Source: a virus. Taken from it: a stretch of DNA of 64,000 nt. Where the stretch lies: IMG/VR virus record IMGVR_UViG_3300045988_087758. One strand, 5' to 3'. The translations under genes and the position numbers were made by a program. Positions 2,570 through 58,344 of this stretch are shown piece after piece. Positions within the stretch are counted from its first letter, which is position 1; every line of letters begins with the position of its first letter. The notes below the pieces were generated by a model. That model searched no databases. It was not told where the DNA came from and worked only from the letters and a program-made list of their open reading frames with translations.

Positions 2570-5359
2570 TTATGCAGAATTGTGCGAACCGTTGAAGTAA
2601 GCATAACACCAATTCTCTCCATCAAAAATGAAATAGGTAAAAGTACCTGCTCTACCTATCTTTATTTTAGTCTGCAAACTGCCATTTGAATACATCTTCC
2701 CTGTATCGTAACCACCAGAGCTGTCATACTCGATATACACGTTTGACGACACTTTAGAGTAAATCAGCAAAGTCTGACCTACAACAGGACCAGCAGGCAA
2801 TTTTAGTGTAATACCACCTTTCGTAACTATCACTATACAATCAGAGCTACTTATTTGCCCGTTATAATTCATAATTCTCAGATTAGGAGCAATAACTCCT
2901 TGTATAGCACCGTTTGTCTGCAAAGCCGTTGGTGTACCTGTAAAACCCTTGGCAATAACATTTATAGCCAACGCAGGCGAATCTTTCTTACTCTGTTCAG
3001 AATAAATATACTGCACTGGTTCGTATTGGGTATTATAAGCATAATTTGTTGGAAGATTCATTTCGTTACTCGAACCTTTACAGACTATTCTTGCGGCGTT
3101 ACCAAGCCATACGGCACGAAAAGCATTATTGCCCGACGTATAAGAGAACTCCGTACAGGACACACCTACGCGAAAATAATCAGTAAGAAGTAAACCACCT
3201 CGGACAAATAACGGGCAATACTGAATACCAGATACAACAGTTGTACCATTATATTCTGTACCCTCCGCTTGCATAATATCCCCCCAATTATCATCCTTTT
3301 TAATGCTCCATATTCCGATTTTGCTATCTCCTGTGACATTAAGCTTAGTAGCTGTAATCTCCTGAGCATTGATACCTTTAGCTACAACGTCTCCTGCATT
3401 AATGAATTTCGCATTGAGCTTACCATTTTCAAACATCGCTGCTTCGTCATAACCCTCAGAAGGATTGGTTCTCGGGGTTTTTACCTGCACTTTGTTTCCG
3501 TACAGGGTGACTTGTTCGCTCGTAATCTCTATACCAGCCTTCTTCAAGGATGCTTTATCTACCAAATCGGTCTTCCGCTCGGTGAACTCGGTCATGGTAG
3601 CACCTACCTCCAACTTAGGTTGGCAGACATAAACCTCGCCTGCGCCATTCAGCTGGATATAAAGCTTAGATGGAAGATAACCATGAAACCTCATGTGTCC
3701 CCAATATCGTTTGTATTCTGTCGTAAGCTGATTAGGTATTTCGATGATAGAAGCATACCGTACGTTTAAAAAACGAGTACCTTGATTTACACTATCCTCG
3801 CTGAAAACAGAATCGCCTTCAGCGTTTCTATCGAACTGAGCATACAATCCAATAGAAGCCTTACCTTTTGCTAGGAAAGAGAAAATGTAATCAACGTCCA
3901 ATTCCATCGAGTCTGTAGCAAACTCCATGACAAGATACGTATTATTAGCGTTTGTGTTTTTGATGCGGAGAGCCATGCAGTCGCCATAATAGGCACGCTC
4001 ATAATCGGGTAGACCATTAGGGTTTAACGATTTAAGACTACCGCCTACTTCCAGAGTTCTGGCGTTGTCTATCATATTACCACCCACGTAATCATAATCT
4101 TGTTTAGAACGAGACCAGCCGTTGTATGTATCTCCCTCTTCCATCATAGGCTGACAGATATAAGCATCGGAAGTTACACAGAATGCGACCGCAAGATAGT
4201 TAGTGACAGCAGATGATGTATCTATCGTAAATGTGAACAGTTCCCATGTATTAGGAGAAGAGACATACATAGTATCTGTCTTATAGAAAGACATATCGCT
4301 GCTTGCATTAGCAATATCTGATGTACTATAAGCTCGAATCCTGAATTGAGCACTAGTACTGCTGCTTTTAACCCAACAGGAGAATGTGTATTTCTTACCT
4401 TTTGTGATAACGACACTTATGCCTCCGCTCTTCGTTCCATCCCAATATACACCATTTTCGTTACTGCTTGTGATATGTACGCAGTTGATACCATCCTTAC
4501 CAGTAGTACATTCAATGCGTGTACCCGAAGAGAAATGCAATGATTCCTGATTATGGAAATCGCTATTCACTAACAGATTCCTTCTGCCGACTGCATTAGA
4601 GCTTACTTCCAAAGAGATTCTCCTAGCTGTCTGTTCGATACTTGATGATACTTCCCTCAATTCGTCCTTCGATGCCTTATCATTAAGTTCATTAGAAACA
4701 GTATTATACTTATTGCTTATCTCCGTATACTTGCGCTGAAAGCTTTCGTCCGTCTCCAATACCGTCTTTACAAAGGTATTGGTGTTAACACGGAATGGCA
4801 GATAGGAATAGTAATCAGTACCATCCACAGTTACCTTCAATTTCACACCGCCAGCAGATGCAGGAACATATTTCCCTGTACCTACCGATTCCGTTGTTAT
4901 GCTTGTCAATTTAATAACATTGCTGCTGATATTAGCATTACAGTTATCCTTTGACACGATGCTTGCGCTGCACGATACAGCCTTACCACCCCTCGTTGCA
5001 CTAACAGTAGATGAATTGTTGTTGAACTGAGTAGATGATATATTTCCGTCTTTATCCGCATTGTATACAAGCTCAGAGGGAGATAGATTGATATTTATCG
5101 CATCCTTACCTGCCGCACCGTCCTTACCTTTATACGATACGCTAAAGCTTGTAGTAGAGTTCGTGTCAGAGTATACTACAATCGTTCTAGTCCACAGATA
5201 AGGCTTCGTGTCGGTTGTCGCAACAACCTTGTCGCTCCAGTTACCTGTAGGTATTTCTGTTCCACTTGCACTTATCTGATATGTAACAGATTTACTGATG
5301 ATAGTGACAGATGTACCGTCCTTTGGTTTCCTATGTAATGTGATTGATGTCGTTAACAT
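2570..5359 (-). CDS. tail fibre / receptor-binding-type structural protein
   Basis: 929-aa ORF in the tail module. N-terminal KPYLWTRTIVVYSD and a GKDGAAGKDA collagen-like tract. Ser/Thr/Asn/Gly-rich composition typical of fibres. Confidence 0.6.
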   Translation of the reverse strand: MLTTSITLHRKPKDGTSVTIISKSVTYQISASGTEIPTGNWSDKVVATTDTKPYLWTRTIVVYSDTNSTTSFSVSYKGKDGAAGKDAININLSPSELVYNADKDGNISSTQFNNNSSTVSATRGGKAVSCSASIVSKDNCNANISSNVIKLTSITTESVGTGKYVPASAGGVKLKVTVDGTDYYSYLPFRVNTNTFVKTVLETDESFQRKYTEISNKYNTVSNELNDKASKDELREVSSSIEQTARRISLEVSSNAVGRRNLLVNSDFHNQESLHFSSGTRIECTTGKDGINCVHITSSNENGVYWDGTKSGGISVVITKGKKYTFSCWVKSSSTSAQFRIRAYSTSDIANASSDMSFYKTDTMYVSSPNTWELFTFTIDTSSAVTNYLAVAFCVTSDAYICQPMMEEGDTYNGWSRSKQDYDYVGGNMIDNARTLEVGGSLKSLNPNGLPDYERAYYGDCMALRIKNTNANNTYLVMEFATDSMELDVDYIFSFLAKGKASIGLYAQFDRNAEGDSVFSEDSVNQGTRFLNVRYASIIEIPNQLTTEYKRYWGHMRFHGYLPSKLYIQLNGAGEVYVCQPKLEVGATMTEFTERKTDLVDKASLKKAGIEITSEQVTLYGNKVQVKTPRTNPSEGYDEAAMFENGKLNAKFINAGDVVAKGINAQEITATKLNVTGDSKIGIWSIKKDDNWGDIMQAEGTEYNGTTVVSGIQYCPLFVRGGLLLTDYFRVGVSCTEFSYTSGNNAFRAVWLGNAARIVCKGSSNEMNLPTNYAYNTQYEPVQYIYSEQSKKDSPALAINVIAKGFTGTPTALQTNGAIQGVIAPNLRIMNYNGQISSSDCIVIVTKGGITLKLPAGPVVGQTLLIYSKVSSNVYIEYDSSGGYDTGKMYSNGSLQTKIKIGRAGTFTYFIFDGENWCYAYFNGSHNSA

Positions 5360-5376: not shown

Positions 5377-6414
5377 TTACGCCTTATAGCTAATAAAGTC
5401 TCTTACGTCTTCGTTATCATTAGCTATCTTACCCCAAATATCCGTACCGACTTCTACCGATACGCCTGTCTTAGTTCCAAGCTCTGTGTTATTCAGAGAG
5501 CTGGCGAATGTATGCGTGAAAGTACCTGTCAATGTAGATGTAATATCTTCACCCTTCTCACCTGCTGAGAATCGATATACATGAGCAGTTACATTCTGGG
5601 CATTTACTCCATCCCAATCTTTATCGACAGAAGCTTCAAGTTCGTACTCGTCACCAATATCTGTAATCTTGTGAAAGTCTGTTGCAAGAGCGGTCTTTTT
5701 ACTATCGCCTGTCTTGTATGCTGAACAGTAGATACCGCCAATACCATCAATCATATCACGTGTAGCCGTAAACTCTCTTGATGTACTATCCTGCAAAGTA
5801 TTCTGCAAAGTCTCACTATTCTCGTTGTAGAATCGGTATGAATATCCACTTATGATTTCCGCACCATCAATGAAGAAACGAGCTTTAAGCTTAGTCGAAG
5901 CATTCTCCTTGGAGAGAGTACAACCGCCTTCAATATATAGAGCAGCCGCACTACTACCAACAATCTGCAAGTGGAGTTCTGCGGTAGCCTCTGATTCATA
6001 ATCTGTGTTAGCGGCTTCACCAGAGCACTTAAACGTAAACATATCGTTGCTCGTATTGCTAGCCGATGCGATATTGTCAATGATTCTTAGCTTGTAGTTA
6101 GATGGATTGATAGCAAATCTAGCATCGCTGCACTTATAAAAGCCTTCCGATGTTGCCGTAGTGGTTACCACAAGCAATGTGTTATTGTAATACCAAGAAC
6201 CATTTGTAATAGTCGCAGTCTGTCCGTTTGTTGCCACAGCCTTTGGAACAAGGATAGGCTGGTTAGCCGCATCCTTGAAATCAGGGGCAGGGGTTGAAGT
6301 CTTGTCATTCCAACCTTGATAAAGAGCAGCATTCTCTGTCTCAATGCTCAATACTACGTTTAATCCCTTCTTCAATCTCTTGAGAGTAATACTACCTGAT
6401 AATGTACCTTCCAT
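5377..6414 (-). CDS. tail-fibre-module structural protein
   Basis: 345-aa ORF, tightly packed with the flanking fibre genes. Thr/Ser/Asn-rich. No family recognised. Confidence 0.45.
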   Translation of the reverse strand: MEGTLSGSITLKRLKKGLNVVLSIETENAALYQGWNDKTSTPAPDFKDAANQPILVPKAVATNGQTATITNGSWYYNNTLLVVTTTATSEGFYKCSDARFAINPSNYKLRIIDNIASASNTSNDMFTFKCSGEAANTDYESEATAELHLQIVGSSAAALYIEGGCTLSKENASTKLKARFFIDGAEIISGYSYRFYNENSETLQNTLQDSTSREFTATRDMIDGIGGIYCSAYKTGDSKKTALATDFHKITDIGDEYELEASVDKDWDGVNAQNVTAHVYRFSAGEKGEDITSTLTGTFTHTFASSLNNTELGTKTGVSVEVGTDIWGKIANDNEDVRDFISYKA

Positions 6415-7896: not shown

Positions 7897-8283
7897 TTAC
7901 TCAAGTCCGAGTGTCTTGCAATCAGCATCAACGATAGCCTTCAAACGTGCTCGCTCTACAAGGAACTCCTTATAAGCAGCAGTCTTGATAGCTATCTCTG
8001 TTTTATCAGTAGTGATGCCAAGCTGAATAGCATTATACTCATTGATGAGCTTCTGTTCCTGATTACCATCCCACTTATCAGCAATGACCGCTTCGGTAAT
8101 CTTATTAGACGTGAGAGGTTCCCATACAATCACTTCCTGGCATTCGTACTGAGTTTTTAATTCTATACCCGAAGGCTTCTCTGTTGATTCTGCCTTCACC
8201 GTCTTGATGTCGTAGTGATAACGGTGACTTCCGTTTCCTACTGCCTCCAATACTGAAGGCTCATTATCGTAAATTACTTTCAT
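7897..8283 (-). CDS. hypothetical protein translationally coupled to the DGR reverse transcriptase
   Basis: 128-aa ORF. Its ATG (8283-8281) overlaps the RT stop TGA (8282-8280) as an ATGA overlap. Confidence 0.45.
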   Translation of the reverse strand: MKVIYDNEPSVLEAVGNGSHRYHYDIKTVKAESTEKPSGIELKTQYECQEVIVWEPLTSNKITEAVIADKWDGNQEQKLINEYNAIQLGITTDKTEIAIKTAAYKEFLVERARLKAIVDADCKTLGLE

Positions 8284-9320
8284 ATTGCAATCTTTTTAAA
8301 GTTATAATTATGTATATAATGGAACGCACCTATCTTCTCTAACAGATGTCTGCTATCGCTATGAGCCGTCCATCCTAACCAAGGGCTTATCCTCATCTTC
8401 AGTGCATCCTCCTTGATTCCTTTCTTTCTTGCGGCTTTCATTTCCCTACATAGGTTCTGTTTCGTTCTCTTACGCATAAGCTTCTGCTTGCGGAAGAACT
8501 GATAGCCTACGTAGTCCAATGCACGACCGCTCTTGTCGTATCTATTCATACCGATTTTGAATATCTGCCAATTTCCTTTAATCTTTAGCTTCAATTCTCC
8601 TTCGAGCTTGCATTTGATGGCTTTGCGAACTTTATGCAATACTTCTTTATTTTCCGCAAAGAATGTTATATCATCGGCATATTCTGTACTCTCGACTTTC
8701 AGCACTTCGTTCACCCAGTGCATGAAGTAAGCAAGATAAAGATTAGCCAAATACTGACTTGAATAGTTACCTATCGGCAATCCATCTGTAGAATTTATAA
8801 TCTCGTCAAGGAGATTCAATACATCAGTGTCCTTTATCTTCTTTCGGATAATCTTCTTCATAACCTCATGGTCGATGCTAGGATAGTACTTTACGATGTC
8901 TATCTTTAAGCAATACAGAGGTCTGTCAATAGGATGTCTTCTTATAATCTCGCCAACCCTTCTTGCGCATCCTTCTATTCCTCTTCCCTTGATGCAGCTA
9001 TATGTATTGTACGTAAATACGCTGCGCCATATAGGTTCAAGGATATTCAGTATCGCATGATGAACGATTCTGTCGGGAAAGTATGGTAATCTGTATATCA
9101 CTCTCTCCTTCGGCTCATGAATGGTGAATACGTCATACTTTGATGTTCTGAACGCCTTATTTTCCAGTATCTCATGCAGCTTCAACAGATTATCCTCTCT
9201 ATTCTTATCGAACACTCGCACACCATAGGTATTTTTCTTTCCCTTCCTAGCCTTTTCATCAGCTAATCTGAGATTATCCATTGATATGATTTTCTCGTAG
9301 AGATAACCAATCCTTCTCAT
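8280..9320 (-). CDS. DGR-type reverse transcriptase
   Basis: 346-aa ORF with RT motifs: catalytic YADD (TEYADDITFF) and the DGR-typical LPIGNYSSQYLANLYL ([I/L]GxxxSQ) motif. It lies directly 3' of the template repeat. Confidence 0.9.
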   Translation of the reverse strand: MRRIGYLYEKIISMDNLRLADEKARKGKKNTYGVRVFDKNREDNLLKLHEILENKAFRTSKYDVFTIHEPKERVIYRLPYFPDRIVHHAILNILEPIWRSVFTYNTYSCIKGRGIEGCARRVGEIIRRHPIDRPLYCLKIDIVKYYPSIDHEVMKKIIRKKIKDTDVLNLLDEIINSTDGLPIGNYSSQYLANLYLAYFMHWVNEVLKVESTEYADDITFFAENKEVLHKVRKAIKCKLEGELKLKIKGNWQIFKIGMNRYDKSGRALDYVGYQFFRKQKLMRKRTKQNLCREMKAARKKGIKEDALKMRISPWLGWTAHSDSRHLLEKIGAFHYIHNYNFKKIAI

Positions 9321-9455
9321 CTTTTTTGCTATTTTGCTTCCTTACTCCGAGTCTTCGACTATTAGCGATATTGCTGATACCTACCAACACGTTTCTGAGT
9401 CCCTAAATTTTTCACCAAGAGGTGAGGTTATGATTCCGATATATAATATTTAACC

Positions 9456-9576
9456 TTAGAAGTATAGGTGAGAGGCGATATTCGCATTCGTGTCCGAGGG
9501 AACGTTAATCGAGTTCGAGTAAACGAAGCCGCAGTTCGAACCGTTATTCGCATTACCGCCAAAGAGAACGCCACGT
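9456..9576 (-). repeat. DGR template repeat (TR)
   Basis: 121 bp aligning base-for-base with 10072-10192 (offset 616). 22 mismatches, 19 at plus-strand T in TR (= A on the coding/minus strand). Read in the VR frame, TR carries 8 AAY codons. Confidence 0.85.
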
Positions 9577-9601
9577 TAGGAATCATCAACCTTAATATCT
9601 T

Positions 9602-9961
9602 TTATTCTACGAAATATCGGTTTCCGTTACCTCGCATTGTCACCTTGCAAGGAAAGGCATTCCGTTTCTTTATCTCCTGCAAGATATAGAGTATATCCTG
9701 TGAGCCTGTGAAGAACTTCATCGCTTCACTCTCTGGGTCTTCAAGATTTCGCTTCACAAGCACCAAGGTCTGACCTTTCGTACCTTTCTGCTTAGAGAAT
9801 CTTGTCGGAATATCCTCCATGAAATCAATCAGCCAAAATGATGTATTCACCAATTTGCTCTGACTTACTTCCTTGCAGTTGAATGAACGGCTGTTCTCAT
9901 TGCGAGGAATGTTCAAGAATGCAAGACTTCCATCGTCTTGCTTTGTGTTATCGTCTGCCAT
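9602..9961 (-). CDS. DGR accessory-position protein (between target gene and TR)
   Basis: 119-aa ORF in the slot normally held by Avd. I did not recognise its sequence as Avd-like. Confidence 0.5.
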   Translation of the reverse strand: MADDNTKQDDGSLAFLNIPRNENSRSFNCKEVSQSKLVNTSFWLIDFMEDIPTRFSKQKGTKGQTLVLVKRNLEDPESEAMKFFTGSQDILYILQEIKKRNAFPCKVTMRGNGNRYFVE

Positions 9962-9999
9962 ATCTCTATTATTTTAATGTTAAACCTAATTTTTAATCA

Positions 10000-10034
10000 C
10001 CCTATGCCGCCAATAAATGACGGGCGGCATAGGG
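10000..10034 (-). promoter_or_regulatory. perfect 12-bp stem hairpin just 3' of the target gene/VR
   Basis: ccctatgccgcc (10000-10011) pairs with ggcggcataggg (10023-10034), 11-nt loop. It sits 26 nt past the target-gene stop (10060-10062). Confidence 0.6.
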
Positions 10035-10059
10035 CGTGTGACGAGCCGTATCGCTTCGA

Positions 10060-11376
10060 TTATGCAGCAGGTAGGAAGCAAAGGCGAGAGGCGAAATGCG
10101 CATCCGATTCCGAGGGAACGATAAACGAGGACAAGAAAACGAAGCCGCAGCGCGAACCGTTAGGCGCAGAACCGCCAAAGAGAACGCCACGTAAAGTTGT
10201 ATCCGTAGGTATGTTTGTGTAATAGTAGTCACCATAATAGCTACTATCGCTACCGCCAACAGCCTTCGCTGTGATGTCACCATATTCGCCAAAGGTAATC
10301 TGTGTAACAAAACCTTCCGTCCTTGCTTCATTACCGACATAGGTATATCCGTCATATCCTGTATCAGAGAATTTCTTAGGGTCACGGCATATATATATCT
10401 TGCTGACACCGCTATCACCTGCCTGTATCTCAATGTTGATTCCATCAGTCCACTGCCATACATGAGCAAATGGGCACTCAATACCTCGGTATCTGTTAAC
10501 GCTTACCTTGCCGAGAGTAACACCATTCTTCGTACCAGTGTCGTAGGTAGCAACACCGCTTCGGTTGCCAAGGCTATCAGTAATACCGCAAAGAACAAAT
10601 GGGTTATTTCCATTGTATGTATACCATTCAGACCAATCTGCGCCAATAACACCGCTACCAAGACCGCCCTGATGATAACCTTCAGTAGTCAGAGCAGCAT
10701 TGTAATTTGTCTGACAAGACAACTGAGCATACTCAATAGCGAAAAGCCAATAGAGTTCTCTCTGAATGTCATATACATGACAATTCCATTCTACGCTACC
10801 AGTCTTTCTCGCTCTTGCCATATTGCGGAATCGTGTACGGCTGATATTGGATGATGCAAACACACTAGCGATAGAGCAGAGTTTGTTGTCCTTGACGTAG
10901 GCTTGATATGCACTCACGTAACGCTTCGGAACTTTACGGAAACCTGCCAAAGGTTCAAGGCTCATCCATGCTCTGCGCTTATTACCATCCGTTTCAAATT
11001 TTTCGTAATACTCTGGCAGCTCAACCATAACCTGTCCTCTGCTTCCGTCACGTGTGGCATTAGTCCAATCCTGTGGGTCGAGATAGTCAACCACATTACC
11101 ATCATCATCGAGCAAGCATCCCTTCATCAAAGTCTGCACTGGTAAGGTTCTGTGCATGCTCATGTTTCCGATTCTCGTTGCAGCCGTTGAACTTACCGTT
11201 ACATCGAACTCGATACCATAGGCATACACCTCTGGCGAAGTGATGGAAAGGTTAAGACTTCTTGATAAGTCTTTAATTTTCAATCTTCTTACAGCACCTC
11301 CAACCTCCGCAAATACGCTATCCGTCTGCTGTACGGATGCCACGGTATCTGCTGTTCCTAAATTCTTATTTGCCAT
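10060..11376 (-). CDS. DGR target protein, probable receptor-binding tail protein with C-terminal variable domain
   Basis: 438-aa ORF in the tail module. The VR covers its C-terminus. The invariant scaffold residues (GG..NG..CGF...RL) fit the C-type-lectin/FGE-like fold of DGR targets. Confidence 0.85.
   Translation of the reverse strand: MANKNLGTADTVASVQQTDSVFAEVGGAVRRLKIKDLSRSLNLSITSPEVYAYGIEFDVTVSSTAATRIGNMSMHRTLPVQTLMKGCLLDDDGNVVDYLDPQDWTNATRDGSRGQVMVELPEYYEKFETDGNKRRAWMSLEPLAGFRKVPKRYVSAYQAYVKDNKLCSIASVFASSNISRTRFRNMARARKTGSVEWNCHVYDIQRELYWLFAIEYAQLSCQTNYNAALTTEGYHQGGLGSGVIGADWSEWYTYNGNNPFVLCGITDSLGNRSGVATYDTGTKNGVTLGKVSVNRYRGIECPFAHVWQWTDGINIEIQAGDSGVSKIYICRDPKKFSDTGYDGYTYVGNEARTEGFVTQITFGEYGDITAKAVGGSDSSYYGDYYYTNIPTDTTLRGVLFGGSAPNGSRCGFVFLSSFIVPSESDAHFASRLCFLPAA
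10072..10192 (-). repeat. DGR variable repeat (VR)
   Basis: Partner of TR. Encodes the last ~40 codons of the 438-aa target (RGVLFGGSAPNGSRCGFVFLSSFIVPSESDAHFASRLCFL). Confidence 0.85.
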
Positions 11377-11412: not shown

Positions 11413-14400
11413 TCATACACTCAGTGTTGCCGAAATTTCATTGGTTTTGTTACCGATTTGCCAAGCCTTGAAGGTAAACACGACACCGAAAGTATTCTTA
11501 TTCTCAGCTCCAAGGTCATTCTCGTTCTCAGTAAATGCGATATTGATAGTGCCTTTAAAGTTCTGAGCCTTAGATGTGGCGTTCCATGCCGCATCTTCCT
11601 GTTTGTCACCACTATCTCTTTCCACGCTCCAATCCCAACCACTCGATGTATCAACGATAGAATCACCACGGACAACTGAGCATACGACATCAATCGTTTC
11701 ACCCCAATCAAGGGTGTCTTGCCCACGCAAATCAATCAGTAGCTTATTCCGTTGTATTGCGGTCGTAGCCTTCCAATAAGGTGAATCCTCAGATGGCTCA
11801 TCGGTAGTGGTCTGTCCTTCCGATACTATGCAGAGCCATCTTGTGCCAAGCCAAGTGACCTCATCATAGTAGCTGTATTCAGTACCTTCCTTCCAGTCAC
11901 CCAGATAGATGGGAGTCCATACCTTCTCACCGCTGACGTTTACCATATTGAAGTATTTGGTAACGATATTGATGCCATCGAAACCAACGTCAAAGATAGA
12001 TTTATCCTTTAAAGTATAGGAGTTGATTCCACGGTACATAGTGAACTTCGGTGCAGAAACTCCTTCGGTCTCCATCATCAAAAGGTGCTGTCTGCTTGTA
12101 TCACTTCTGTTACCCATAAGGACGATGGTATCACCTGCGGCAGGATTGTCCGAGCCTTCCATGCAGTTGTCCTTCGCAATCTGAATCCATGCGAACTTCT
12201 TTCCGTCATATAGTTCGTGACCTTCACCATCGGTGATTACCTCATTCTCTGCTGATACCTTAGTGACAAGTCTCCAATAGTCCTTGTTGCTGACGTTCTC
12301 ATAGACACCCGATGCAATGTTGAATGTCTTGCACCTAACTTGGTCTTCCACCTTGAATGAGTTGATGGTAGCGGTCGTTCCATCATCGGCTAAGAGGTAG
12401 CACTGCCACCCAATCAGCTCATTCGTCGTCTCGCTGTATACTTCCTTGATGTAGCTTATCTTGCCAGCAGCAGGGGAGAGGACGATGTTACCGCCAACGT
12501 AGCTGAGTTCACGTATCAAGAGGGTGTTGAAGATTGCCTTACCCCAAACAATCAAATCCGTGAGCAGCATTTGAAACTTTCCATCGCTTCTCTGTTTAAT
12601 AGCAAAACCACTCTGCTCTGCTTCGTTAAAGTCGAGTGACTTCAATAAGTTCACTATCACACTAGATAGGATAGCGTTGCCGCTGCCATCAATACTGAAC
12701 TCGTTAGAGTGACCGAGGAAGAAGCCTTGCAAGAATTTCTGTACCTTCTGAAATGTGATTGTTCCGCTAGCTATATCATCTGTCAGTTTAGAGAGATACA
12801 TTTTATCGGTTATACTAGCATTAAAGCTATTGGTATTACTACCCCCAGCCATACTAGATAGAGATTTAACCGTTTCTCCTTTTACTGCATCAATAATCTG
12901 CTTTACATCACTCTTTGTAACTTCCAACGAATTTACAAGCTCAATTTCAACTTCTGCCAGATCTTCGTTATCAACCTTTACTGAGTAGTTGCTGACGAAA
13001 ACTTCGTGACTAATAAGATTTCCATCGTTATCCGAATCGCCTTGTATCTGTATTGACAGCTTTGCATTCTCATTCAACTTGCTTGCAAAGTCAGGATTCT
13101 CTTGCAAGAATACGCGAGAAAACTTAACAGAGTAGTTAAATTGGTCTGTATTGTTTTCGCTCATGTGCTTGATAAGAGCATCATCTAGTCTTTTCTCTGC
13201 TGCCGTTACAAGAACCTTTGGAGGTTTAATGCCTGTAATGACAAACAAATCTCCCTTTTGCGGTTTAAAGCCAGCACTCGCGTTTGGCATTACGATACCT
13301 AGTGTTGATGTATCTTTCTGAACGCAAATCCAAAGTTCTTCTTTCGTTGAATCTTGGTTTGATTTGTTATCCTTAACGTATGTGTCGCTAAGAATATAAT
13401 CACCTTTGCTATTCATTTTTCCACTATCTGACTTCAAATTTCCATTTCCGTCAGTAAGTACATTATTGTAGCATTTATTATTTGCACTATCCCAATAACA
13501 CCCGATAACAAATGAGCAAGCAGGGCATCCATTACTCTTGATGAGATTTATCTTTGCTGATTCACTAGCCAAAGCATGAGCAAATAAGTCAAATCCAAAA
13601 TCACCATTAAACTTATGTAGCTTTATATAGAAATAGCTATGAATATAATTTCCGTCACTATCCTTTACATCGCTATCTTCTTTATCAAAAGCAACATCTG
13701 CAATCTCTCCAAATAGCTGCCCTTCCGCATTTACAATTCCATTAATAGTTGGCTTTATATCATCAAAAGTAACAGTTCCTTGATGAGGATTGCCTTTCTT
13801 ATACAAGTTTACAAACTCGTAATATCCACTACCGCTTTGCAACTTGTGGGTGTTATTCAAAGCATAATAGAAACGCTCTGCACCTTTCGTGTTGCGATAT
13901 ATAGAAGGCATAAGTACCGATGATGGTGCAATCCAGACTCTATCAGTAACCATTACCTTCACTGCATTATCCTCAGTTCCAGTATAAACCTTATTGAATC
14001 CATATCTGTCACCATCTTTTACAAATTGATAGTCATATTCAATGCAATTTGCCTCGCCGATTCCACTTACATTAATACCGGCATCACTGTAAGGAATATA
14101 CTTGTCACCATTCCTCCATTCATATTCAGATTTTAACTCGTATAAGAACTCAATACTTCCACTAAAAGCAACATTCCAACTATCCGCGCCATAAAAGTCA
14201 TTAATGCCAGCACTATTTTTGTACACCTTGCATTTGTAAGAAAACTCAGATTCTATAGATAATGTGAAATCTCCATCCTCTTCAAATGTGTATGTAGCAA
14301 CACTTCCAAAACTCATCTTATTAGAGATAGTCTTGTACAACTCTTTTCCTTTGAATATATATATGCTCTTGACGGCATTACCAACGTTTGTTATATAGTC

Positions 14401-15531
14401 TTTTCTCGAAACAGAACTATTTAATTCATAGCTAAAATTCAAGTTCGTCAAATCTACCGACTGCCCCTTAATCGCGCTGATTGGAATACTAAACGAAAAT
14501 CGACAAGTAACAGTTGGATTAGACTGATTATCAGCTTGTGTTAAGTTAGATGGGGTAGTAAATCTATCGAATGTATGCGAGCTTACATCTACACTTCCAT
14601 TGTAACTTTTTCCTTCCTTGCTTTTATAAAGGATAAGAGTATCATTATATCTTGAATCTTTAAGGAACTTTGATAATTCTACACTAACTTTATCCTTGCT
14701 GATATTCTCTGTATTGAACACTGCCTCGCCAAACTCGTCATCATTAGGATAATAATATGGCATGTTATCAGATGAACCGTAACCTGTTATCATATCAACT
14801 ATCTTATAGTTCGCATTCTCCTTTGACACGGACATAAGGGCATCACTACTACCATATTTTATAGGTGTATCTGTTAAGTCGTGCTGTACCTTGCCGACAT
14901 GACAAACATTGCCATCCCAGTAGTAATCAAGTTCAAAAGTTGTATTGATAAGTTGCAAGACATCAGTCAAATATTGGTCTTCAAATGATACTTCCTTAAC
15001 TTCATCTGTTCCATATCCTTCGTCAACAACAACGTAATATCCCTTGTATTCATCTGTAGGACGATACAATCCACAATATGCCATTGAGCTATTAATGCGA
15101 GCTACAAACTCATAGATAGTTCCACCAAACGTGAACTTTGTCTGATTTGAGCGGTATCCGTCTTTATCCTGAGTATCAACATCATCAACGACAACATCAA
15201 AGAATAGAGTGTTATCAAGCAATTCTCTTCTAGATGTAAAAGTGATTTCGCTCTTCCACATTCTAGACGAATTATCCTTTGTAGAGTTTGGCGTATAGGA
15301 CGCAAAGAATCTATCGCCATTGTACTCTACGAACTCTTCCTTCTTCCATTGCAAAGGTTCAGAAGAATATATTGTAGCAGTAAGGGTAGGAGCACCACCC
15401 ATACGCTTTGCATCGTAGGTATATGATGATACAATAGCAGGGTTAGCTTCCGATGGGAACAAACCGATAATTTCATTACCAGTGTTCTCATCGTAAGTCA
15501 ACTTCTGTATGTATAATGATTCTGCCTTCAT
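11413..15531 (-). CDS. large tail/baseplate structural protein (Tal-like)
   Basis: 1372-aa ORF between the portal-like gene and the DGR target. The N-terminus resembles the N-domain of siphovirus tail-associated proteins. Assignment rests mainly on size and context. Confidence 0.5.
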   Translation of the reverse strand: MKAESLYIQKLTYDENTGNEIIGLFPSEANPAIVSSYTYDAKRMGGAPTLTATIYSSEPLQWKKEEFVEYNGDRFFASYTPNSTKDNSSRMWKSEITFTSRRELLDNTLFFDVVVDDVDTQDKDGYRSNQTKFTFGGTIYEFVARINSSMAYCGLYRPTDEYKGYYVVVDEGYGTDEVKEVSFEDQYLTDVLQLINTTFELDYYWDGNVCHVGKVQHDLTDTPIKYGSSDALMSVSKENANYKIVDMITGYGSSDNMPYYYPNDDEFGEAVFNTENISKDKVSVELSKFLKDSRYNDTLILYKSKEGKSYNGSVDVSSHTFDRFTTPSNLTQADNQSNPTVTCRFSFSIPISAIKGQSVDLTNLNFSYELNSSVSRKDYITNVGNAVKSIYIFKGKELYKTISNKMSFGSVATYTFEEDGDFTLSIESEFSYKCKVYKNSAGINDFYGADSWNVAFSGSIEFLYELKSEYEWRNGDKYIPYSDAGINVSGIGEANCIEYDYQFVKDGDRYGFNKVYTGTEDNAVKVMVTDRVWIAPSSVLMPSIYRNTKGAERFYYALNNTHKLQSGSGYYEFVNLYKKGNPHQGTVTFDDIKPTINGIVNAEGQLFGEIADVAFDKEDSDVKDSDGNYIHSYFYIKLHKFNGDFGFDLFAHALASESAKINLIKSNGCPACSFVIGCYWDSANNKCYNNVLTDGNGNLKSDSGKMNSKGDYILSDTYVKDNKSNQDSTKEELWICVQKDTSTLGIVMPNASAGFKPQKGDLFVITGIKPPKVLVTAAEKRLDDALIKHMSENNTDQFNYSVKFSRVFLQENPDFASKLNENAKLSIQIQGDSDNDGNLISHEVFVSNYSVKVDNEDLAEVEIELVNSLEVTKSDVKQIIDAVKGETVKSLSSMAGGSNTNSFNASITDKMYLSKLTDDIASGTITFQKVQKFLQGFFLGHSNEFSIDGSGNAILSSVIVNLLKSLDFNEAEQSGFAIKQRSDGKFQMLLTDLIVWGKAIFNTLLIRELSYVGGNIVLSPAAGKISYIKEVYSETTNELIGWQCYLLADDGTTATINSFKVEDQVRCKTFNIASGVYENVSNKDYWRLVTKVSAENEVITDGEGHELYDGKKFAWIQIAKDNCMEGSDNPAAGDTIVLMGNRSDTSRQHLLMMETEGVSAPKFTMYRGINSYTLKDKSIFDVGFDGINIVTKYFNMVNVSGEKVWTPIYLGDWKEGTEYSYYDEVTWLGTRWLCIVSEGQTTTDEPSEDSPYWKATTAIQRNKLLIDLRGQDTLDWGETIDVVCSVVRGDSIVDTSSGWDWSVERDSGDKQEDAAWNATSKAQNFKGTINIAFTENENDLGAENKNTFGVVFTFKAWQIGNKTNEISATLSV

Positions 15532-15533
15532 GT

Positions 15534-17081
15534 TTATTCTTTATTATTGTTTGTATTCTTTGTCATTGCGGTAATCTCAGCTTGTTTTTCGGCACGTTCA
15601 TCTGCCTCTTCTTGCTGAGTCTGCAATCTTACTTCCTCGTCAGGTGCAGAAACAGTATTCTTTTCAACACCAGTCTTGGTAGAAATCAAACCTGCACCGC
15701 TCAATGTACAAAGCATCTGATTCCATGCACTTTCATCGAATGGCTGCCAAGGCTTAAATGATGTACTGATTCTCATCTGCTTAAACTCAGTAATTGCAGT
15801 AGGATTCTCACCGCTTGCAACCAACTGCTTTGCCAGTCCTTCCTTGAATAGTCTTGAATGTTTGCTGACGAAATTCTGCCACTCAATAGCTGCATTGTTA
15901 GCCTCCTCAATATCCAAAGAACGTGTCATCTGAATTGCCAAACCGCTTATATCGCCACTAGACTTAATATCCTTTGGCAAGATAAATGTACATCCTGTAG
16001 CAATCTGCAACTGGTCGAGAATTGACTGCATGAACTCAATCATGTTCTGTGGAGAAGGTGGAGTCTTAAACTCTGCGCTTCCATTTCCTTCAATGCTTGT
16101 ATCATTCAAGATGATAGAACCAGCAATCTTCTTTGCGGTTTCATTGAGCTTACCCTTGATGTAAAGGATTCCCCATCCATGTCGTTTCTGGATGACCGCA
16201 AACAGATTATATATAATCTCGAATAGCTCGATAAGGTCTTGACCGTTATTCCAAGCAACATCACCACGTTTTGTAATAAGTGGACTTTCTGAGAATCCAT
16301 GCACTTCCTTGCTTTCCAAACACCATCCTTTCAGTACTTCGTTTGTATCAACGTCTTGAACGAATACATCTGTGAAATGATAATGATATGTCTTATCGTA
16401 TGCATCAATGTGTCTTACATTGTCCTCAGTACGATAATACACGCAATCAAGAAGCGGTTCTCCGTTATCGTCTTTATGGGTGATAATCTGATAGCCATCT
16501 TCATACGAGAACAATCGGCATTTCACTTCGTTATCCTCATTCATGTAAACGAGTAATCCTACATCACCATAACTCTGCTGAATGCGTATAGCTTCCATTT
16601 CGATACCATCCTGATTCGTTTCATCCCAATGCCATTTGAAATCGGCAAAGTTCTTTTTGAGTTTATCAGTCGGATTGCTGTCATGCAGTATGTGATTGCG
16701 TTTGTTGCCACCCAAGCAGAGAGCCTTTTTGTCAACAATACGCCGTTGCATAGGAATACCAAACTTCTTAAACTCAATCTCACAATAACTGCCATCATCA
16801 AGTTTACAGCATATAGAAGGTAAATTCGTATCAAATAATACCCTATGAGAATAAGGGTCTAATTCCTTCGCAAAACGCTCTTGGCTAACAACTATCTTGC
16901 TGATATTCGGAAGCTGTGCCTCTTTACGGAAGTTTGTCTTAATATCTGAACCATCAGAAGAATCATTGATGGTAATAGCGCGCGAACCCCTCAAAAACGG
17001 CTTTTTCAGAAGAAGTTTCTGAGGATTCTCCAAAAAATCATTAATTATATCTTGTCTCTTTCTACTCATCGCTATTGTCAT
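15534..17081 (-). CDS. putative portal protein
   Basis: 515-aa ORF just downstream of the terminase genes. Acidic C-terminal tail (QQEEADERAEKQAE). Size and position are typical of a portal. Confidence 0.6.
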   Translation of the reverse strand: MTIAMSRKRQDIINDFLENPQKLLLKKPFLRGSRAITINDSSDGSDIKTNFRKEAQLPNISKIVVSQERFAKELDPYSHRVLFDTNLPSICCKLDDGSYCEIEFKKFGIPMQRRIVDKKALCLGGNKRNHILHDSNPTDKLKKNFADFKWHWDETNQDGIEMEAIRIQQSYGDVGLLVYMNEDNEVKCRLFSYEDGYQIITHKDDNGEPLLDCVYYRTEDNVRHIDAYDKTYHYHFTDVFVQDVDTNEVLKGWCLESKEVHGFSESPLITKRGDVAWNNGQDLIELFEIIYNLFAVIQKRHGWGILYIKGKLNETAKKIAGSIILNDTSIEGNGSAEFKTPPSPQNMIEFMQSILDQLQIATGCTFILPKDIKSSGDISGLAIQMTRSLDIEEANNAAIEWQNFVSKHSRLFKEGLAKQLVASGENPTAITEFKQMRISTSFKPWQPFDESAWNQMLCTLSGAGLISTKTGVEKNTVSAPDEEVRLQTQQEEADERAEKQAEITAMTKNTNNNKE

Positions 17082-17663: not shown

Positions 17664-19274
17664 TTAATAGTACAACGTATCATCATAAATGCTCTGTGCA
17701 TTAGGATTTTTCTCTTCAACTTCCTGTGCTGCGAGTCTGAACCCTTCCTGTAGTTCGCTACCATACTCCATATTCAAACATGGGTACATTCTCATTGCGC
17801 AAGGGTCAACCACGTCCATAGAACGGTCTTTTCCGAGATTTCTGTTCATTTCCTTCTTGCTCTGCAACTTCTTCTTTCCACTCTGCATCTTATCAAAGCG
17901 AACTACCGCGCATTCTTCCATGAACTCATTCTGTATGGTAACTCTGTATTTGAGGTTTTGATGCGTGTAAACCGCATTTGCAACCTTATCAGAGAATGTA
18001 AGCTGTCCTCGCTTAATCATGTAGCTCAGTCGCAAGTAACATAGGTCTTTTATTGTCATTGCAGACAAGTAATAAATTCCCATTGCCTTTGCTGCTGATA
18101 TATATGGAATAGCATCAGGTATATAGTCATTGAAATACCTACCTGCCGTAGCATCATAGATAATATGGCTTTCTGCTACTCCCTCGCTCGCCGCGAACAG
18201 CCTAGCTCTTTCTGCATTGATTCGCGGTGTTGAATGCATAACGATTTCGTAATTGACAACGTGGAATCCATTCCACGACAACATCAGAGTATTATCCTTT
18301 CCGTAATCTGCCAAGTCGATTGTTATCCACTTGTCACCATTTACGGCTGGGTCTTTTATGAAGCAATCTCTTGCCGCTTGGCTTGGAATCGGTATATCCT
18401 CATCCTCTTCTGGGTCAACATTGAAGTTACCCTCCATAAGAGCTTGTGCCATTCTACCGCCCGATGCCGCTACAGAACCTAAATAGCCGGAGTTGTTTTC
18501 AAGCATCTTCTTGTTTGAACCAAGTTTACCTTGATAGAAAACAAAACTCTTAATCATTACTTCATATCCAAAGTTGCCGCCAATGGTTTTAAGCTTTCTG
18601 TCTATATCTATCTTACATTTTTCATAGACTTCTCGCTTAGACATTCCCCAAACAACATCCTTAACAGTCGGTCCTGCACAATAGAAGTATCTGACTACAC
18701 CATCACGCTCTGGGATGATAAAACCATCTGAGCCAATATACCAATCAAGAAATATTCTCGTCCAGTGGCTACGCTTCGGGTTAAGTGTTGCAAAGAACTT
18801 ACCTGTAAACGTCTTGCTCTGACCTCTGTTTCGAGTCATGACGTAAGAAAAAACTTCCCAAGTCATCTCCGTCAACTCGTCAATCGCAATCAAATCGTAC
18901 TCCCATCCTTTCGCGCGCTCTCTCAACTTATCCATATTGGAATCGTCAAGATACGTCAAATCGACAAACGTTCCATTCGGAAATGTAACGCGCGGATTCT
19001 CGCTCTCTCTGACTTTTACAAAATCAGCTCCGAATATCTGTTTAAACTTCTCTACGAATCCTCCACCTGCTTTTTGATTACCAAGTGAACGGCGTGAAAT
19101 CATTGCACGAAAATCTGGGTCGGTCATTAACGGCTCTGCCATCGCAAGTACAAGACCATACGATTTGCCTCCTCCGAGATTTCCGCCACCAAAAACAACG
19201 TCAACGTTGCTACTTGCAAAGGACATTTGAAAGCCCTCTTGTGGTCTGATTTCTATATCTTTATTCGTGTTCAT
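17664..19274 (-). CDS. terL: terminase large subunit
   Basis: 536-aa ORF. Walker A-like GGGNLGGGKSYG, Walker B YDLIAIDELTE, and a C-terminal nuclease-sized domain. Confidence 0.9.
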   Translation of the reverse strand: MNTNKDIEIRPQEGFQMSFASSNVDVVFGGGNLGGGKSYGLVLAMAEPLMTDPDFRAMISRRSLGNQKAGGGFVEKFKQIFGADFVKVRESENPRVTFPNGTFVDLTYLDDSNMDKLRERAKGWEYDLIAIDELTEMTWEVFSYVMTRNRGQSKTFTGKFFATLNPKRSHWTRIFLDWYIGSDGFIIPERDGVVRYFYCAGPTVKDVVWGMSKREVYEKCKIDIDRKLKTIGGNFGYEVMIKSFVFYQGKLGSNKKMLENNSGYLGSVAASGGRMAQALMEGNFNVDPEEDEDIPIPSQAARDCFIKDPAVNGDKWITIDLADYGKDNTLMLSWNGFHVVNYEIVMHSTPRINAERARLFAASEGVAESHIIYDATAGRYFNDYIPDAIPYISAAKAMGIYYLSAMTIKDLCYLRLSYMIKRGQLTFSDKVANAVYTHQNLKYRVTIQNEFMEECAVVRFDKMQSGKKKLQSKKEMNRNLGKDRSMDVVDPCAMRMYPCLNMEYGSELQEGFRLAAQEVEEKNPNAQSIYDDTLYY

Positions 19275-20911: not shown

Positions 20912-22093
20912 ATGCAACAATTTGATTTTAACAATTCGAGATACGCCAAGTTGTTCTCTTCTAAGGATAACATCAACTTTCTGAGAACCTTCTTGAACAC
21001 CAAGGGGTTGCTCTATACTAACTATGGCTGGTATCTCACACAAGGTCGTAGAGCTTCTATGCCTACACCTACAGACTACGATGGCGTGGCTTCATTCAGC
21101 ATCAAGTCTCGCAAGGCAGAGGCAGCTCCTTTGATGCACCTTCGCGCTCCACTTGGTGATGCTCCAGAAATGGATAACGAGGGTTTGGAGATATACACAG
21201 GTACAATTCCAGACTTCATCGGTTACAAGTGGTCTGAAAACGCAAGACAACGCGAGTACAAAGAGAAACTTTTTGAACAGTTCGGCAACGATGCAGACCT
21301 TATGGCTGCTTGGGTGCGCGATGTTGTTCAGGTAGGTAAGAACTCAGCAGAGGCAACACTCTCTAACCTGACAGCACAGATTATGACAACTGCAAAGATG
21401 AGTTGGAAGGGCAAGGGTGAAGGTTTGCAGCAGTTCTTGCAGAAGGTTGAGCCATTCCCAACAGAGAACCGCAAGAAGGCTGGCGCAAAGGCTTGGACTG
21501 CCCCAGACTGCAACCTTATCTCACAGATGAGAAAGATTGAAGACGATTATCGCGATGAGCGTGGCGGTACTGAGATTTCTCTCGTATGGAAGATGACTCG
21601 CAAGATGTACCGTGATGTATTCTTGCAGAACAAGGAGGTTAAGGAGTGGTATATCAACTGGTGCAAGGCTCACGACCGCGCATATACTGCTAACATGCAG
21701 ATTTTGGACGAGGACTTCAAGAAATCACTTTCCGACATGACAGGTCTTTCTCCTATCGAGATTGTCGTTGAGAAGGAGCGCAACAAGACTGTTACAACTG
21801 ACACATTCGTGCAAGGTTGGGATGATAAGATTGTTGTACTTTGCCCTACTGGTGATAGCGTTGAGTTCAAGTGGACTCCTATCTACGACCAGACACTTCA
21901 ACAGAAGTATGGCGCAAAGAATATTGATGTTTCTTGGGCTTCAATCGCTGACGGACTCGTAACCGTAGGAAACTACGCAATGGATAACGGTCAGTTCCGC
22001 GAGTGGCAGACTAAGGTCATGATGTCTGCTTGCCCTGCACTTCTCGACTTTATGAACCACGTAATCATTGATACCTCAACAGCAGATAATTAA
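20912..22093 (+). CDS. putative major capsid protein
   Basis: 393-aa ORF at the canonical position after the scaffold. Call based on size and position. Confidence 0.55.
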   Translation: MQQFDFNNSRYAKLFSSKDNINFLRTFLNTKGLLYTNYGWYLTQGRRASMPTPTDYDGVASFSIKSRKAEAAPLMHLRAPLGDAPEMDNEGLEIYTGTIPDFIGYKWSENARQREYKEKLFEQFGNDADLMAAWVRDVVQVGKNSAEATLSNLTAQIMTTAKMSWKGKGEGLQQFLQKVEPFPTENRKKAGAKAWTAPDCNLISQMRKIEDDYRDERGGTEISLVWKMTRKMYRDVFLQNKEVKEWYINWCKAHDRAYTANMQILDEDFKKSLSDMTGLSPIEIVVEKERNKTVTTDTFVQGWDDKIVVLCPTGDSVEFKWTPIYDQTLQQKYGAKNIDVSWASIADGLVTVGNYAMDNGQFREWQTKVMMSACPALLDFMNHVIIDTSTADN

Positions 22094-47403: not shown

Positions 47404-48465
47404 ATGAAGACAACAGAAATCATGAATGCAGGTGGCACATCTGTAAAATACGACATCGTGAACATCGGCTGTAAGGATTGCCCTTATTGCATGATGGCGG
47501 AAGGTCACTACCTTTGCCGTTCAGACAAAAGCTGCAACGCAAAGGCAAACATGACCGATGATGATGAGCCAAAGCAGAAAGTAATAATATACAGTCGTGT
47601 CTCTACTGAAAAGCAGACATTGGAGCAGCAGGAAAGAACAATAAACGAATGGTTGAATTGTCACAATCTGAAAGCTACTCACGAAGTGAAGGAGGAAGGA
47701 GTATCGGGTAAGGTATCTTATAAGGATAGAAACCTTGGTAAGGTAGTGTTGCCGATGCTTGATAAAGGTGATATACTTATTGTGTCAGAGGTCAGCCGTA
47801 TCGGTCGTTCCATGAGCGACATCAACAAGTTTGTAAACGACGAACTGAAACCACGTGGCGTGCGCTTGGTTATCGTTCAGATGGGTATTGACCTTGATTG
47901 CAGCCATCTGAAAGCGATAGACGAAATGCTACTGTTCGCATTCTCATTCTCGGCACAGATGGAGCGTGAACTCATACAGGAGCGAACACAGAGCGCATTG
48001 GAAGTACGCAAGCAGAAGTTGGCACAAGACGGAGAATTTATCTCAAAGTCTGGTAAGGTCGTTAAGAAGTTGGGCAGACCTAGAAAATGTGACTTATCAA
48101 ATGCACAGAAGGCTGCATCGGAAAAGCGCAAGAAAGAGGCTGCTGAGAAACCTTGCAACAAGGCTATATGGAATGTGGTTAAGAAGTGTACCAATGACTT
48201 CACTGAATTGACTACACCTAACTTTGCGGATGCAGCTATGATGTTGCAGCAGATGGGCGTTTATTCGTCCACTGGAAAGGTATTAACCAAAGAACTGGTA
48301 AGAAGTGCGTACTACAACTTACGTTCAGTCTATGGCAGTCAGGTTTATTTCAGACGCGGTTCTGCAAACTATCGTGTAATGCGAGAAAAGGGTATGACTG
48401 ACGAGGATATTCAGCAGTATTACAAGGAACTGAATAACAACAACAATAATACAGAGGAGGAATAG
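47404..48465 (+). CDS. small serine recombinase (resolvase/invertase family) with Cys-rich N-terminal extension
   Basis: 353-aa ORF. VIIYSRVSTEKQTLEQQ (catalytic Ser context), ...GVSGK...DILIVSEVSRIGRS...LVIVQ. N-terminal CKDCPYC...C....C. Confidence 0.8.
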   Translation: MKTTEIMNAGGTSVKYDIVNIGCKDCPYCMMAEGHYLCRSDKSCNAKANMTDDDEPKQKVIIYSRVSTEKQTLEQQERTINEWLNCHNLKATHEVKEEGVSGKVSYKDRNLGKVVLPMLDKGDILIVSEVSRIGRSMSDINKFVNDELKPRGVRLVIVQMGIDLDCSHLKAIDEMLLFAFSFSAQMERELIQERTQSALEVRKQKLAQDGEFISKSGKVVKKLGRPRKCDLSNAQKAASEKRKKEAAEKPCNKAIWNVVKKCTNDFTELTTPNFADAAMMLQQMGVYSSTGKVLTKELVRSAYYNLRSVYGSQVYFRRGSANYRVMREKGMTDEDIQQYYKELNNNNNNTEEE

Positions 48466-57587: not shown

Positions 57588-57661
57588 GGTTTCATAGCTC
57601 AGGTGGTTAGAGCGGTCGGCTGTTAACCGATAGGTCGTAGGTTCGAATCCTGCTGAAACCG
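57588..57661 (+). tRNA. tRNA-Asn (anticodon GTT)
   Basis: Hand-folded cloverleaf: ggtttca/tgaaacc acceptor, gctc-aggtggtta-gagc D arm, gtcgg-ctGTTaa-ccgat anticodon arm, gtagg-ttcgaat-cctgc T arm. 74 nt. Confidence 0.9.
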
Positions 57662-58096
57662 AAATTCTTTTAGAATCAGATTATCACTACAAGTGATGAA
57701 ACTGAAAGCTAGAGAAGAGTTCTTTGACATATTGACGCACAGAATATAGTATGCGTGGAAAAGAAGTAGCCGGAGAGCATCAATGGATGCCGTGACCTGG
57801 CGAAAAGGACGCACGACATACGAAAAACTAGTCAGTAACAGATATTACATAGACTATACCGATGAACTATGCTGAAACATCAGCACAAGCAAAGGGCATA
57901 ATATAGGTCTGTATCGTTTGCTATGTAGTATTCTAGTCGAAGTATGTATTATTGCCATCTTACGTGTAAGATATTTATAATATGTATGGAGTGTCATATG
58001 GAACGTCAATGCTAGCTGTATCGGGAATACGGAAACGATTAATATCGTGGCATTCACAAACGACAGAAAGCTCCATGGTTTTAGATACATAAAACA
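57662..58096 (+). ncRNA. 435-nt ORF-free hairpin-rich segment inside the tRNA array (candidate structured RNA)
   Basis: No plus-strand ORF. The minus-strand track ORFs overlap tRNAs. Local hairpins at 57681-57699, 57735-57756, 57777-57790, 57870-57885, 57955-57989 and 58035-58048. Confidence 0.3.
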
Positions 58097-58196: not shown

Positions 58197-58344
58197 CAAA
58201 TTTTCAATTATTATTAGATAGTACAACGTTTATTACGAATATAGAAGTCTAGCTAACTCTGAACAGAGTTAAGTCAAAGAATGAGACTTAAACACTACTT
58301 AAAGTAGAGATTACTTCTCAATACTTTAATTAAATAACAACAAA

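Follow-up and report, generated by a model that had tools for sequence, protein, structure and literature searches.

Diversity-generating retroelements (DGRs) are common in phages of the gut, the setting in which they are most frequent, so one more such element is in itself unremarkable. The one described here is of a known general kind, with a probably new accessory variant. To our knowledge, a single DGR has been dissected biochemically, and its cDNA synthesis cannot proceed without the accessory protein Avd, a pentameric, basic four-helix bundle (Pfam 23S_rRNA_IVP/Avd family). Avd is missing from roughly one in four DGRs, and we know of no account of how these prime and position their template. 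Here we describe a probable DGR on the minus strand of a 64,000-nucleotide viral sequence (IMG/VR record IMGVR_UViG_3300045988_087758; this whole stretch is referred to as the window), in which a small protein that is not Avd, here termed ACC, stands in the Avd position.

Cryo-electron microscopy of the BPP-1 complex of reverse transcriptase (RT), Avd and RNA showed that an RNA element, the cPRT Stop, sets the end of cDNA synthesis and is needed for priming; that study surveyed only Avd-bearing DGRs (bioRxiv 10.1101/2023.10.23.563531). DGRs without avd include the Bacteroidales 'lineage 3' (PMC5758913), to which the DGR of crAssphage LMMB was assigned by its authors (PMC7290462). Described accessory classes are Avd, HRDC, MSL and CH1, and a further four candidates have poor support (PMC5758913). 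CH1 is a small, motif-less acidic protein (isoelectric point, pI, 4.7 ± 0.2; 160-169 aa) that occurs only in avd-less DGRs, in Bacteroides lineage 3a (PMC5758913). RT-17 is one of 19 orphan RNA motifs found near RT genes, of which only RT-10 has been assigned to DGRs (Weinberg et al., 2017; PMC5737381). The window may belong to lineage 3: avd is absent, the hosts are Bacteroidales and the RT of LMMB is among the closest deposited RTs, but there is an extra open reading frame (ORF) between its variable repeat (VR) and template repeat (TR).

Template repeat, variable repeat and reverse transcriptase

The window encodes, in minus-strand order, a target gene with the VR at its C-terminal end (10060-11376), the small ORF ACC (9602-9961), the TR and an RT (8280-9320). 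We read this region as a functional-looking DGR in a temperate, siphovirus-like Bacteroidales phage of the gut, diversifying the C-terminus of a tail protein, with a probability of about 0.9. An earlier note, made from the sequence alone, had proposed this gene order and an adenine-specific mutagenic retrohoming cassette acting on a phage tail protein. The order was confirmed, and the reading is upheld by RT affinity, target fold, variation confined to adenines, concerted evolution from TR to VR and conserved DGR RNA elements.

The TR (9456-9576, minus strand) is 121 nt long, contains 27 adenines and is located within the 281-nt non-coding gap between ACC and the RT gene. It aligns without gaps, at an offset of 616 bp, to the 121-nt VR (10072-10192, minus strand), and the target stop codon sits 10 nt past the VR end. 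The two repeats differ at 22 positions, 19 of them adenines in the TR, two cytosines and one thymine (Fisher one-sided p = 3.9e-13; binomial p = 3e-10). Read in the VR frame, the TR carries eight AAY codons, whose VR counterparts are S, P, N, R, S, I, D and H. Realignment reproduced the coordinates, offset and mismatch counts of the earlier note, and its codon reading exactly. Within the diversified part of the VR (approximately 10095-10170) are 17 of the mismatches; 15 of these fall at TR adenines, and the other two, at positions 59 and 84, fall at cytosines. No second, remote VR was identified in the window, where the next best match beyond TR and VR agrees at 37 of 78 non-A positions. A 21-nt repeat, D2, with copies at 9448-9468 and 12000-12020, is probably a chance two-copy match.

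Variation among relatives was compared in a set of nine, consisting of the window and eight close relatives (L003-L010). Their TRs are near-identical and their VRs different. At all 25 columns where the TR adenine is invariant, the VR differs from the TR or varies between the nine, compared with 6 of 79 non-A columns. The same bias is found in 100 distinct TR/VR pairs from related cassettes, in which TR adenines differ from the VR at 1721 of 2741 sites (63%) and non-A bases at 56 of 8736 (0.64%). Where relatives are polymorphic at non-A positions of the TR, each VR matches its own TR. This mirroring of the cognate TR is a signature of repeated TR-to-VR transfer, i.e., concerted evolution. A single protein cluster at 90% identity (P0238, 89% identical to the window target) has 2108 distinct member sequences, many more than its neighbors, a size that C-terminal hypervariation would produce.

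The last five TR/VR differences (positions 107, 111, 113, 118 and 119 of 121) behave otherwise. They are identical in all nine relatives, with TR TCTCACCTATACTTCTAA and VR TCTCGCCTTTGCTTCCTA fixed throughout, and the VR 3' end, TCGCCTCTCGCCTTTGCTTCCTA, is the same in each. The A-site differences at positions 107, 111 and 113 show one VR base across the set, and position 119 lies at the repeat boundary. Because of this identity, we regard the five as fixed differences between the initiation of mutagenic homing sequence (IMH) and its TR counterpart (IMH*) and not as products of mutagenesis. From the sequence, distinct IMH (approximately 10072-10094, minus strand, the 3' end of the VR) and IMH* (approximately 9456-9478, minus strand, the 3' end of the TR) are present, with putative function, and the IMH core CTCGCCTTTGCTT is kept in nearly all VRs examined in the family. 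All 27 TR adenines had been put forward as variable positions; the adenine bias stands, but not the claim that every one is a target, as those at the 3' end fall in IMH*. A separate observation concerns three related loci (L014, L026 and L039) with TR copies of just 13-16 adenines, two of which (L014 and L026) have many TR/VR mismatches at non-A positions. Either VR-like sequence has overwritten these TRs, or the assembly confused reads from TR and VR.

The RT (346 aa, minus strand) matches RVT_1 (E 3e-14) and phrog_1423 (E 8e-108), and encodes the motifs YADD (in STEYADDITFF) and IGNYSSQ, which fits the pattern IGxxxSQ; both had been noted before and were confirmed. Its best PDB chain is the BPP-1 RT (8ub7; E 1.8e-31, 113 bits), compared with at most 41 bits for group II and retron RTs (group II E 1e-9). 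The expectation that this RT is closer to DGR RTs than to retron or group II RTs is thus borne out by similarity scores. By tblastn against a collection of deposited phages, the top matches are crAss-like phage RTs annotated as reverse transcriptase (identity up to 47%). These include crAssphage LMMB, whose cassette has been published as a DGR, and BPP-1 brt was matched at 28% identity. Judged by best matches and motifs rather than by a tree, the RT has DGR affinity.

The target (438 aa, minus strand) belongs to phrog_5302, 'tail protein' (E 9e-116). Homologues are encoded by crAss-like phages and Bacteroides phage Versailles (26-42% identity), and the closest protein is labelled Prevotella sp. 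In the AlphaFold2 (AF2) model (pLDDT 76, pTM 0.81), the C-terminus is predicted to have a C-type lectin (CLec) type, DGR variable-protein fold. The best Foldseek matches in the PDB are TaqVP (5vf4; E 3.7e-6, probability 1.00) and then Mtd (1yu0; E 0.08). The search for a CLec fold that had been suggested therefore gave a positive result, though TM-scores against DGR variable proteins are modest (0.38-0.46).

About 25 nt past the target stop codon, downstream of the VR, is a hairpin with a 12-14 bp stem (9998-10036, minus strand). As DNA, the region 9962-10075 folds with a minimum free energy of -19.2 kcal/mol (z = -3.7), and 1 of 200 shuffled sequences folds as well. GC-rich hairpins of differing sequence occur at the same spot in many, not all, relatives, and the structure may serve target recognition as a cruciform or mark the end of a transcript. 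Also present at the target stop codon is a 4-bp mini-hairpin (ATCG-AAG-CGAT; 10050-10060, minus strand). In relatives, small GC-rich hairpins and an ACACG motif recur at the post-stop spot, as judged by eye.

RNA elements and the small protein in the Avd position

The RNA between the stop codon of ACC and the start codon of the RT was aligned for 32 diverse cassettes and analyzed using RNAalifold and explicit pair counting, with controls in which the partner strand was slid by 1-3 columns. The TR is bracketed by a long-range duplex of 12 bp, formed by a 5' arm (GGTTGATGATTCC; 9579-9591) and a 3' arm (GGAATCATAACC; 9426-9437), both on the minus strand. Nine of the 12 pairs are changed on both sides across the alignment and 96% of cells are paired. 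TR/VR homology starts 2-3 nt past the 5' arm. The 3' arm is followed by a covarying 4-bp stem-loop (CACC-TCTT-GGTG; 9413-9424), a run of adenines 3' of it (9408-9412) and a further covarying stem in the spacer (9386-9391 / 9348-9353), all on the minus strand. For the structure as a whole, 97.6% of cells are paired and 15 of 23 pairs are changed on both sides; the slid controls are 32-56% paired. A sigma-70 promoter and terminator scan gave nothing above shuffled expectation, and the sigma-70 model is ill-suited to Bacteroidales.

The structured RNA between TR and RT (9322-9429, minus strand) is a member of Rfam RF03020, the RT-17 motif: cmscan scored it at 51.7 bits against a gathering score of 40.4 (E 3e-9), over the full model (1-95). 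The long-range duplex extends the motif on its 5' side and is absent from the Rfam model. The cPRT Stop of BPP-1 is laid out likewise, with a duplex, then a short stem-loop, then adenosines. The orphan motif RT-17 would hereby gain a role, as the TR-RT spacer of a DGR.

We propose that a transcript spans the 3' flank of ACC, the TR and the 135-nt spacer, and that this RNA folds so that the 12-bp duplex of the TR flanks brackets the template and is followed by the short stem-loop, the A-run and the RT-17 motif. The RT would then copy the TR into cDNA, misincorporating at adenines, and the cDNA would replace the VR, directed by the conserved IMH (TCGCCTCTCGCCTTTGCTT). Up to approximately 22 adenine-templated positions could be re-randomized in this way, including the eight AAY codons, on the surface of the predicted CLec-type C-terminal domain.

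ACC (9602-9961, minus strand) is a 119-aa protein of phrog_19665, a family of unknown function (E 7e-34). It has 492 homologues, which form 117 clusters at 50% identity and none of which has a Pfam domain. The mean pairwise difference by codon position (0.21, 0.13 and 0.54) indicates a real coding gene under purifying selection. The family is mildly basic (pI 8.85 ± 0.36). Neither the single sequence nor a 32-sequence profile matched anything in Pfam, NCBIfam or PDB sequences, and tblastn against 50,697 deposited phage records found no match. The earlier note had placed a small accessory ORF here and had cited the BPP-1 paradigm. The gene order and mechanism of that paradigm hold, but homology to Avd does not: there is no sequence match, and the model is beta-rich with one helix, not a four-helix bundle. 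We thus rejected the identification of ACC as Avd, and no other Avd-like ORF was identified in the cassette.

We inspected 121 loci with ACC (80 on viral contigs, 35 in genomes and six for the two most distant relatives tested). In all 121, ACC is immediately upstream of a DGR RT, and the target is directly upstream of ACC where it falls within the DNA examined. The two most distant relatives (32% identity) conform to this in each of their six places, five of which also have a target homologue directly upstream and a TR/VR pair with 72-100% of differences at TR adenines. In one locus (L122), ACC is retained beside the RT though the target there is a protein of 1128 aa. In sequence conservation, ACC exceeds the target and equals or exceeds the RT.

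We consider it an even call that ACC serves as the accessory factor of the RT, a small basic nucleic-acid binder doing the job of Avd, possibly together with an acidic protein encoded after the RT (D128, below). By size and charge ACC fits no described accessory class, though it could be one of PAG1-4 (Wu et al., 2018). It may, with slightly less confidence, represent a new class, in which a small basic protein with an OB-like fold binds nucleic acid and takes the place of Avd in a single lineage of DGRs from Bacteroidales phages, with an RT-17-type cPRT-Stop spacer. If so, part of the 'Avd-less' quarter of DGRs would not be accessory-free and would use non-homologous helpers, possibly with a D128/CH1-like protein.

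Several results count against such a role. The AF2 model of ACC is of moderate confidence (pLDDT 71), with beta strands 1-3, one helix and then two or three strands, a topology that is possibly OB-like. Foldseek found nothing significant for it in the PDB (best E 0.26, the weak matches being OB folds). By hhalign there is no similarity between ACC and RT, including no ACC-like segment in the RT of the cassette itself. In crAss-like phages and phage Versailles, related DGRs lack any ORF between VR and TR, so ACC is not required by this RT clade in general.

These results leave room for a tentative alternative, in which the DGR is real, the RT works with RNA alone, as in other Avd-less Bacteroidales DGRs (lineage 3 of Wu et al.), and ACC is a hitch-hiking passenger between VR and TR, such as a virion or assembly protein or a regulator. 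The crAss-like and Versailles cassettes consist of target, TR and RT with approximately 230-330 nt between target and RT, and Wu et al. (PMC5758913) warned that genes sandwiched in DGRs may be mere phage genes. ACC also has no recognizable domain and no significant PDB fold match. A passenger would, however, have to account for the constant position of ACC down to 32% identity, which is that of avd in BPP-1, and for a conservation that ranks highest in the cassette, when the cassette flanks are not conserved beyond the closest relatives. In addition, the three matches of the ACC model in BFVD below E 1e-4 (3.6e-7, 2.4e-5 and 4.9e-5; TM up to 0.63) are all RT-annotated viral proteins, the region that carries the ACC-like fold not being visible in the search output. 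Phage single-stranded DNA-binding proteins are found among the weaker BFVD matches (E 0.01-0.05).

The idea that ACC is a duplicated piece of RT was rejected at the sequence level (hhalign of the ACC profile against the RT alignment, probability 0.2%). In three ORFs (P0163, P0173 and P0199), N-terminal sequence from an ACC relative runs in frame into the interior of a DGR RT. The junction differs in each, and two of the ORFs share one ACC N-terminal sequence. These could be deletion variants without TR or assembly chimeras.

The gene after the RT, D128 (7897-8283, minus strand), encodes an acidic protein of 128 aa, and its ATG overlaps the RT stop codon (ATGA). It belongs to phrog_11557, of unknown function (E 2e-40), has no Pfam match and is part of a family with pI 4.68 ± 0.19. 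A homologue follows the RT in every locus whose sequence extends past the RT; the five loci without a match end at or within it. Loci with a homologue there include crAss cr111_1 and phage Versailles, both without ACC, and a relative also follows the RT in the distant cassette of L118 (hhalign probability 98.8%). D128 therefore belongs to the cassette and not to the fibre genes. Its relatives are 119-180 aa long, or 253-279 aa in members with a C-terminal extension of 115-150 aa; the extended lengths occur among L012, L040, L044, L053, L055, L065, L068, L076, L086, L094 and L116, and the extended relative in L053 has a weak DUF4376 match. This hints that D128 may be a protein of the virion surface or an adaptor, and not a cofactor of the RT.

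The order target, ACC, TR, RT, D128 is kept in all 80 viral-contig and 35 genome loci as far as the contigs reach. Flanking genes are common only to the closest relatives, which indicates that the block is passed as a unit from one phage backbone to another. By megablast, the cassette had no match among the 50,697 deposited phages. Several kb downstream of the cassette, four loci (L030, L043, L045 and L046) have perfect direct repeats of up to 484 nt at an offset of 444 nt (e.g., L045 10509-10992), which look like tandem duplication within a downstream gene.

State of the window copy

The evidence for diversification at the population level comes from related contigs and not from reads of this genome, which weakens the reading of the window copy as a working DGR, as do the following features of the locus itself. 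Two mismatches inside the diversified part are at non-A positions (C to T and C to A). The window TR has lost two adenines relative to L003-L010: it carries T at two sites where most or all TRs of relatives have A (TTCACT to TTCTCT and GAATAAC to GATTAAC). ACC residue 105 (codon approximately 9647-9649) is Cys in place of a near-invariant Arg (FPRK to FPCK), a private change given that each of the eight close relatives, and 90% or more of the family, has Arg; this R105C substitution could impair ACC in the window copy. Finally, we found no convincing template:primer duplex or priming nucleotide. By inspection, no more than 3-4 AU pairs can form between 9438-9455 and the 3' end of the TR, in a stretch whose alignment varies too much for covariation to be assessed.

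R105C, the two non-A mismatches and the two lost adenines make the state of the window copy uncertain, and judged from the aligned relatives, its TR is slowly losing mutable sites. The same three features speak for a recently inactivated relic in a family that is otherwise active. We consider this improbable. The RT, ACC, D128 and target ORFs are intact, with catalytic motifs, as are IMH, IMH* and the RNA helices. The VR also has T at each of the two sites of adenine loss in the TR, and this sharing fits faithful copying by retrohoming after the TR had mutated.

Least credible by far is that the repeat arose by ordinary duplication, or matches by chance, next to an RT of another kind (from a retron, group II intron or defence system): NCBIfam does give only sub-threshold matches, to group II, retron and Drt models, from a library that appears to have no DGR RT model, but an adenine bias of p = 4e-13 that recurs in 100 independent TR/VR pairs, an RT with IGxxxSQ that scores 113 bits to the BPP-1 RT and 41 to group II, and a target with a predicted DGR variable-protein fold all oppose it.

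Phage context and comparison with described elements

The window is from a siphovirus-like temperate phage. Identified genes include those for a portal (15534-17081), large terminase (17664-19274), major head protein (20912-22093), tape measure (25359-31022) and tyrosine integrase (54079-55275). Together with the integrase, the window holds, at 47404-48465, 57588-58759 and 60029-63256, a serine recombinase/invertase-like gene, two tRNA genes (Asn and Gln) and a 1075-aa helicase/methyltransferase-like ORF.

The DGR is downstream of the portal and of a 1372-aa protein (11413-15531, between the portal and the DGR target), whose only matches are phrogs of unknown function, with no relative in Pfam or the PDB. 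This protein may be a tail or fibre protein or an ejection or head protein, which bears on the description of the region as a fibre module. The earlier note had placed the cassette within a fibre operon, with four fibre-module genes downstream of, and translationally coupled to, the RT. Five ORFs follow the RT, and of these only the first, D128, overlaps its stop codon. The ORFs past D128 encode 401, 76, 345 and 929 aa, with gaps of 6-33 nt. The 345-aa ORF (5377-6414) matches a weak tail phrog, and the 929-aa ORF (2570-5359) matches tail-fibre phrogs, CBM_4_9 and a head-spike-fibre domain, with no match in a PDB sequence search. These two are the only ORFs downstream of D128 with structural annotation, so that the fibre setting has weak, family-level support from them and none from the other downstream ORFs. 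The label is plausible.

The hosts are Bacteroidales. Prophages with ACC were identified in Phocaeicola coprocola DSM 17136, Mediterranea massiliensis, a complete Muribaculaceae genome and others, and Muribaculaceae MF13079 is a cultured strain with a cassette-bearing prophage. The cassette family is abundant (more than 115 loci) and includes prophages in cultured strains, which makes the question of ACC function open to experiment.

In its overall plan the locus resembles the BPP-1 DGR (mtd-avd-TR-brt). Both have a target with a C-terminal VR, a small ORF, TR, spacer and RT in that order, adenine-specific substitutions, AAY codons and a CLec-type target (predicted here), and an RT that in the window is 28% identical to brt. 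In both, IMH and IMH* differ at about five fixed positions, and a short stem-loop and adenosines come after the duplex of the TR flanks (the cPRT Stop layout; bioRxiv 10.1101/2023.10.23.563531). Unlike BPP-1, the small ORF of the window is not Avd, its upstream duplex arm is just past the ORF stop codon rather than inside the coding end of the ORF, and an extra acidic gene overlaps the RT stop codon. The spacer matches RT-17, where that of BPP-1 has RT-10 (Weinberg et al., PMC5737381). The match to RT-17 covers the full model above the gathering score, but the motif has been described only as near RT genes (PMC5737381); in the window it is the TR-RT spacer, with a long-range duplex on its 5' side.

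CH1 and D128, compared by description only, are alike in being acidic and belonging to the same kind of cassette, CH1 having no motifs and D128 no Pfam match, and differ in length (160-169 aa for CH1, 119-180 or 253-279 aa for D128 relatives). ACC, which is basic and 119 aa long, is unlike CH1.

The bearing of this locus on Avd-less DGRs is that the RNA architecture of BPP-1 appears to persist in an element without Avd, and that a different, tightly linked small protein is found in the Avd slot. The nearest described elements are the Avd-less DGRs of Bacteroidales and crAss-like phages (lineage 3 of Wu et al., 2018; crAssphage LMMB, cr55_1 and Versailles). They have the closest RTs among deposited phages (40-47% identity), homologous targets (26-42%) and no avd, and in cr111_1 and Versailles a D128-like acidic gene also follows the RT. 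In these elements the TR comes directly after the target (PMC7290462), whereas in the lineage of the window ACC is inserted there.

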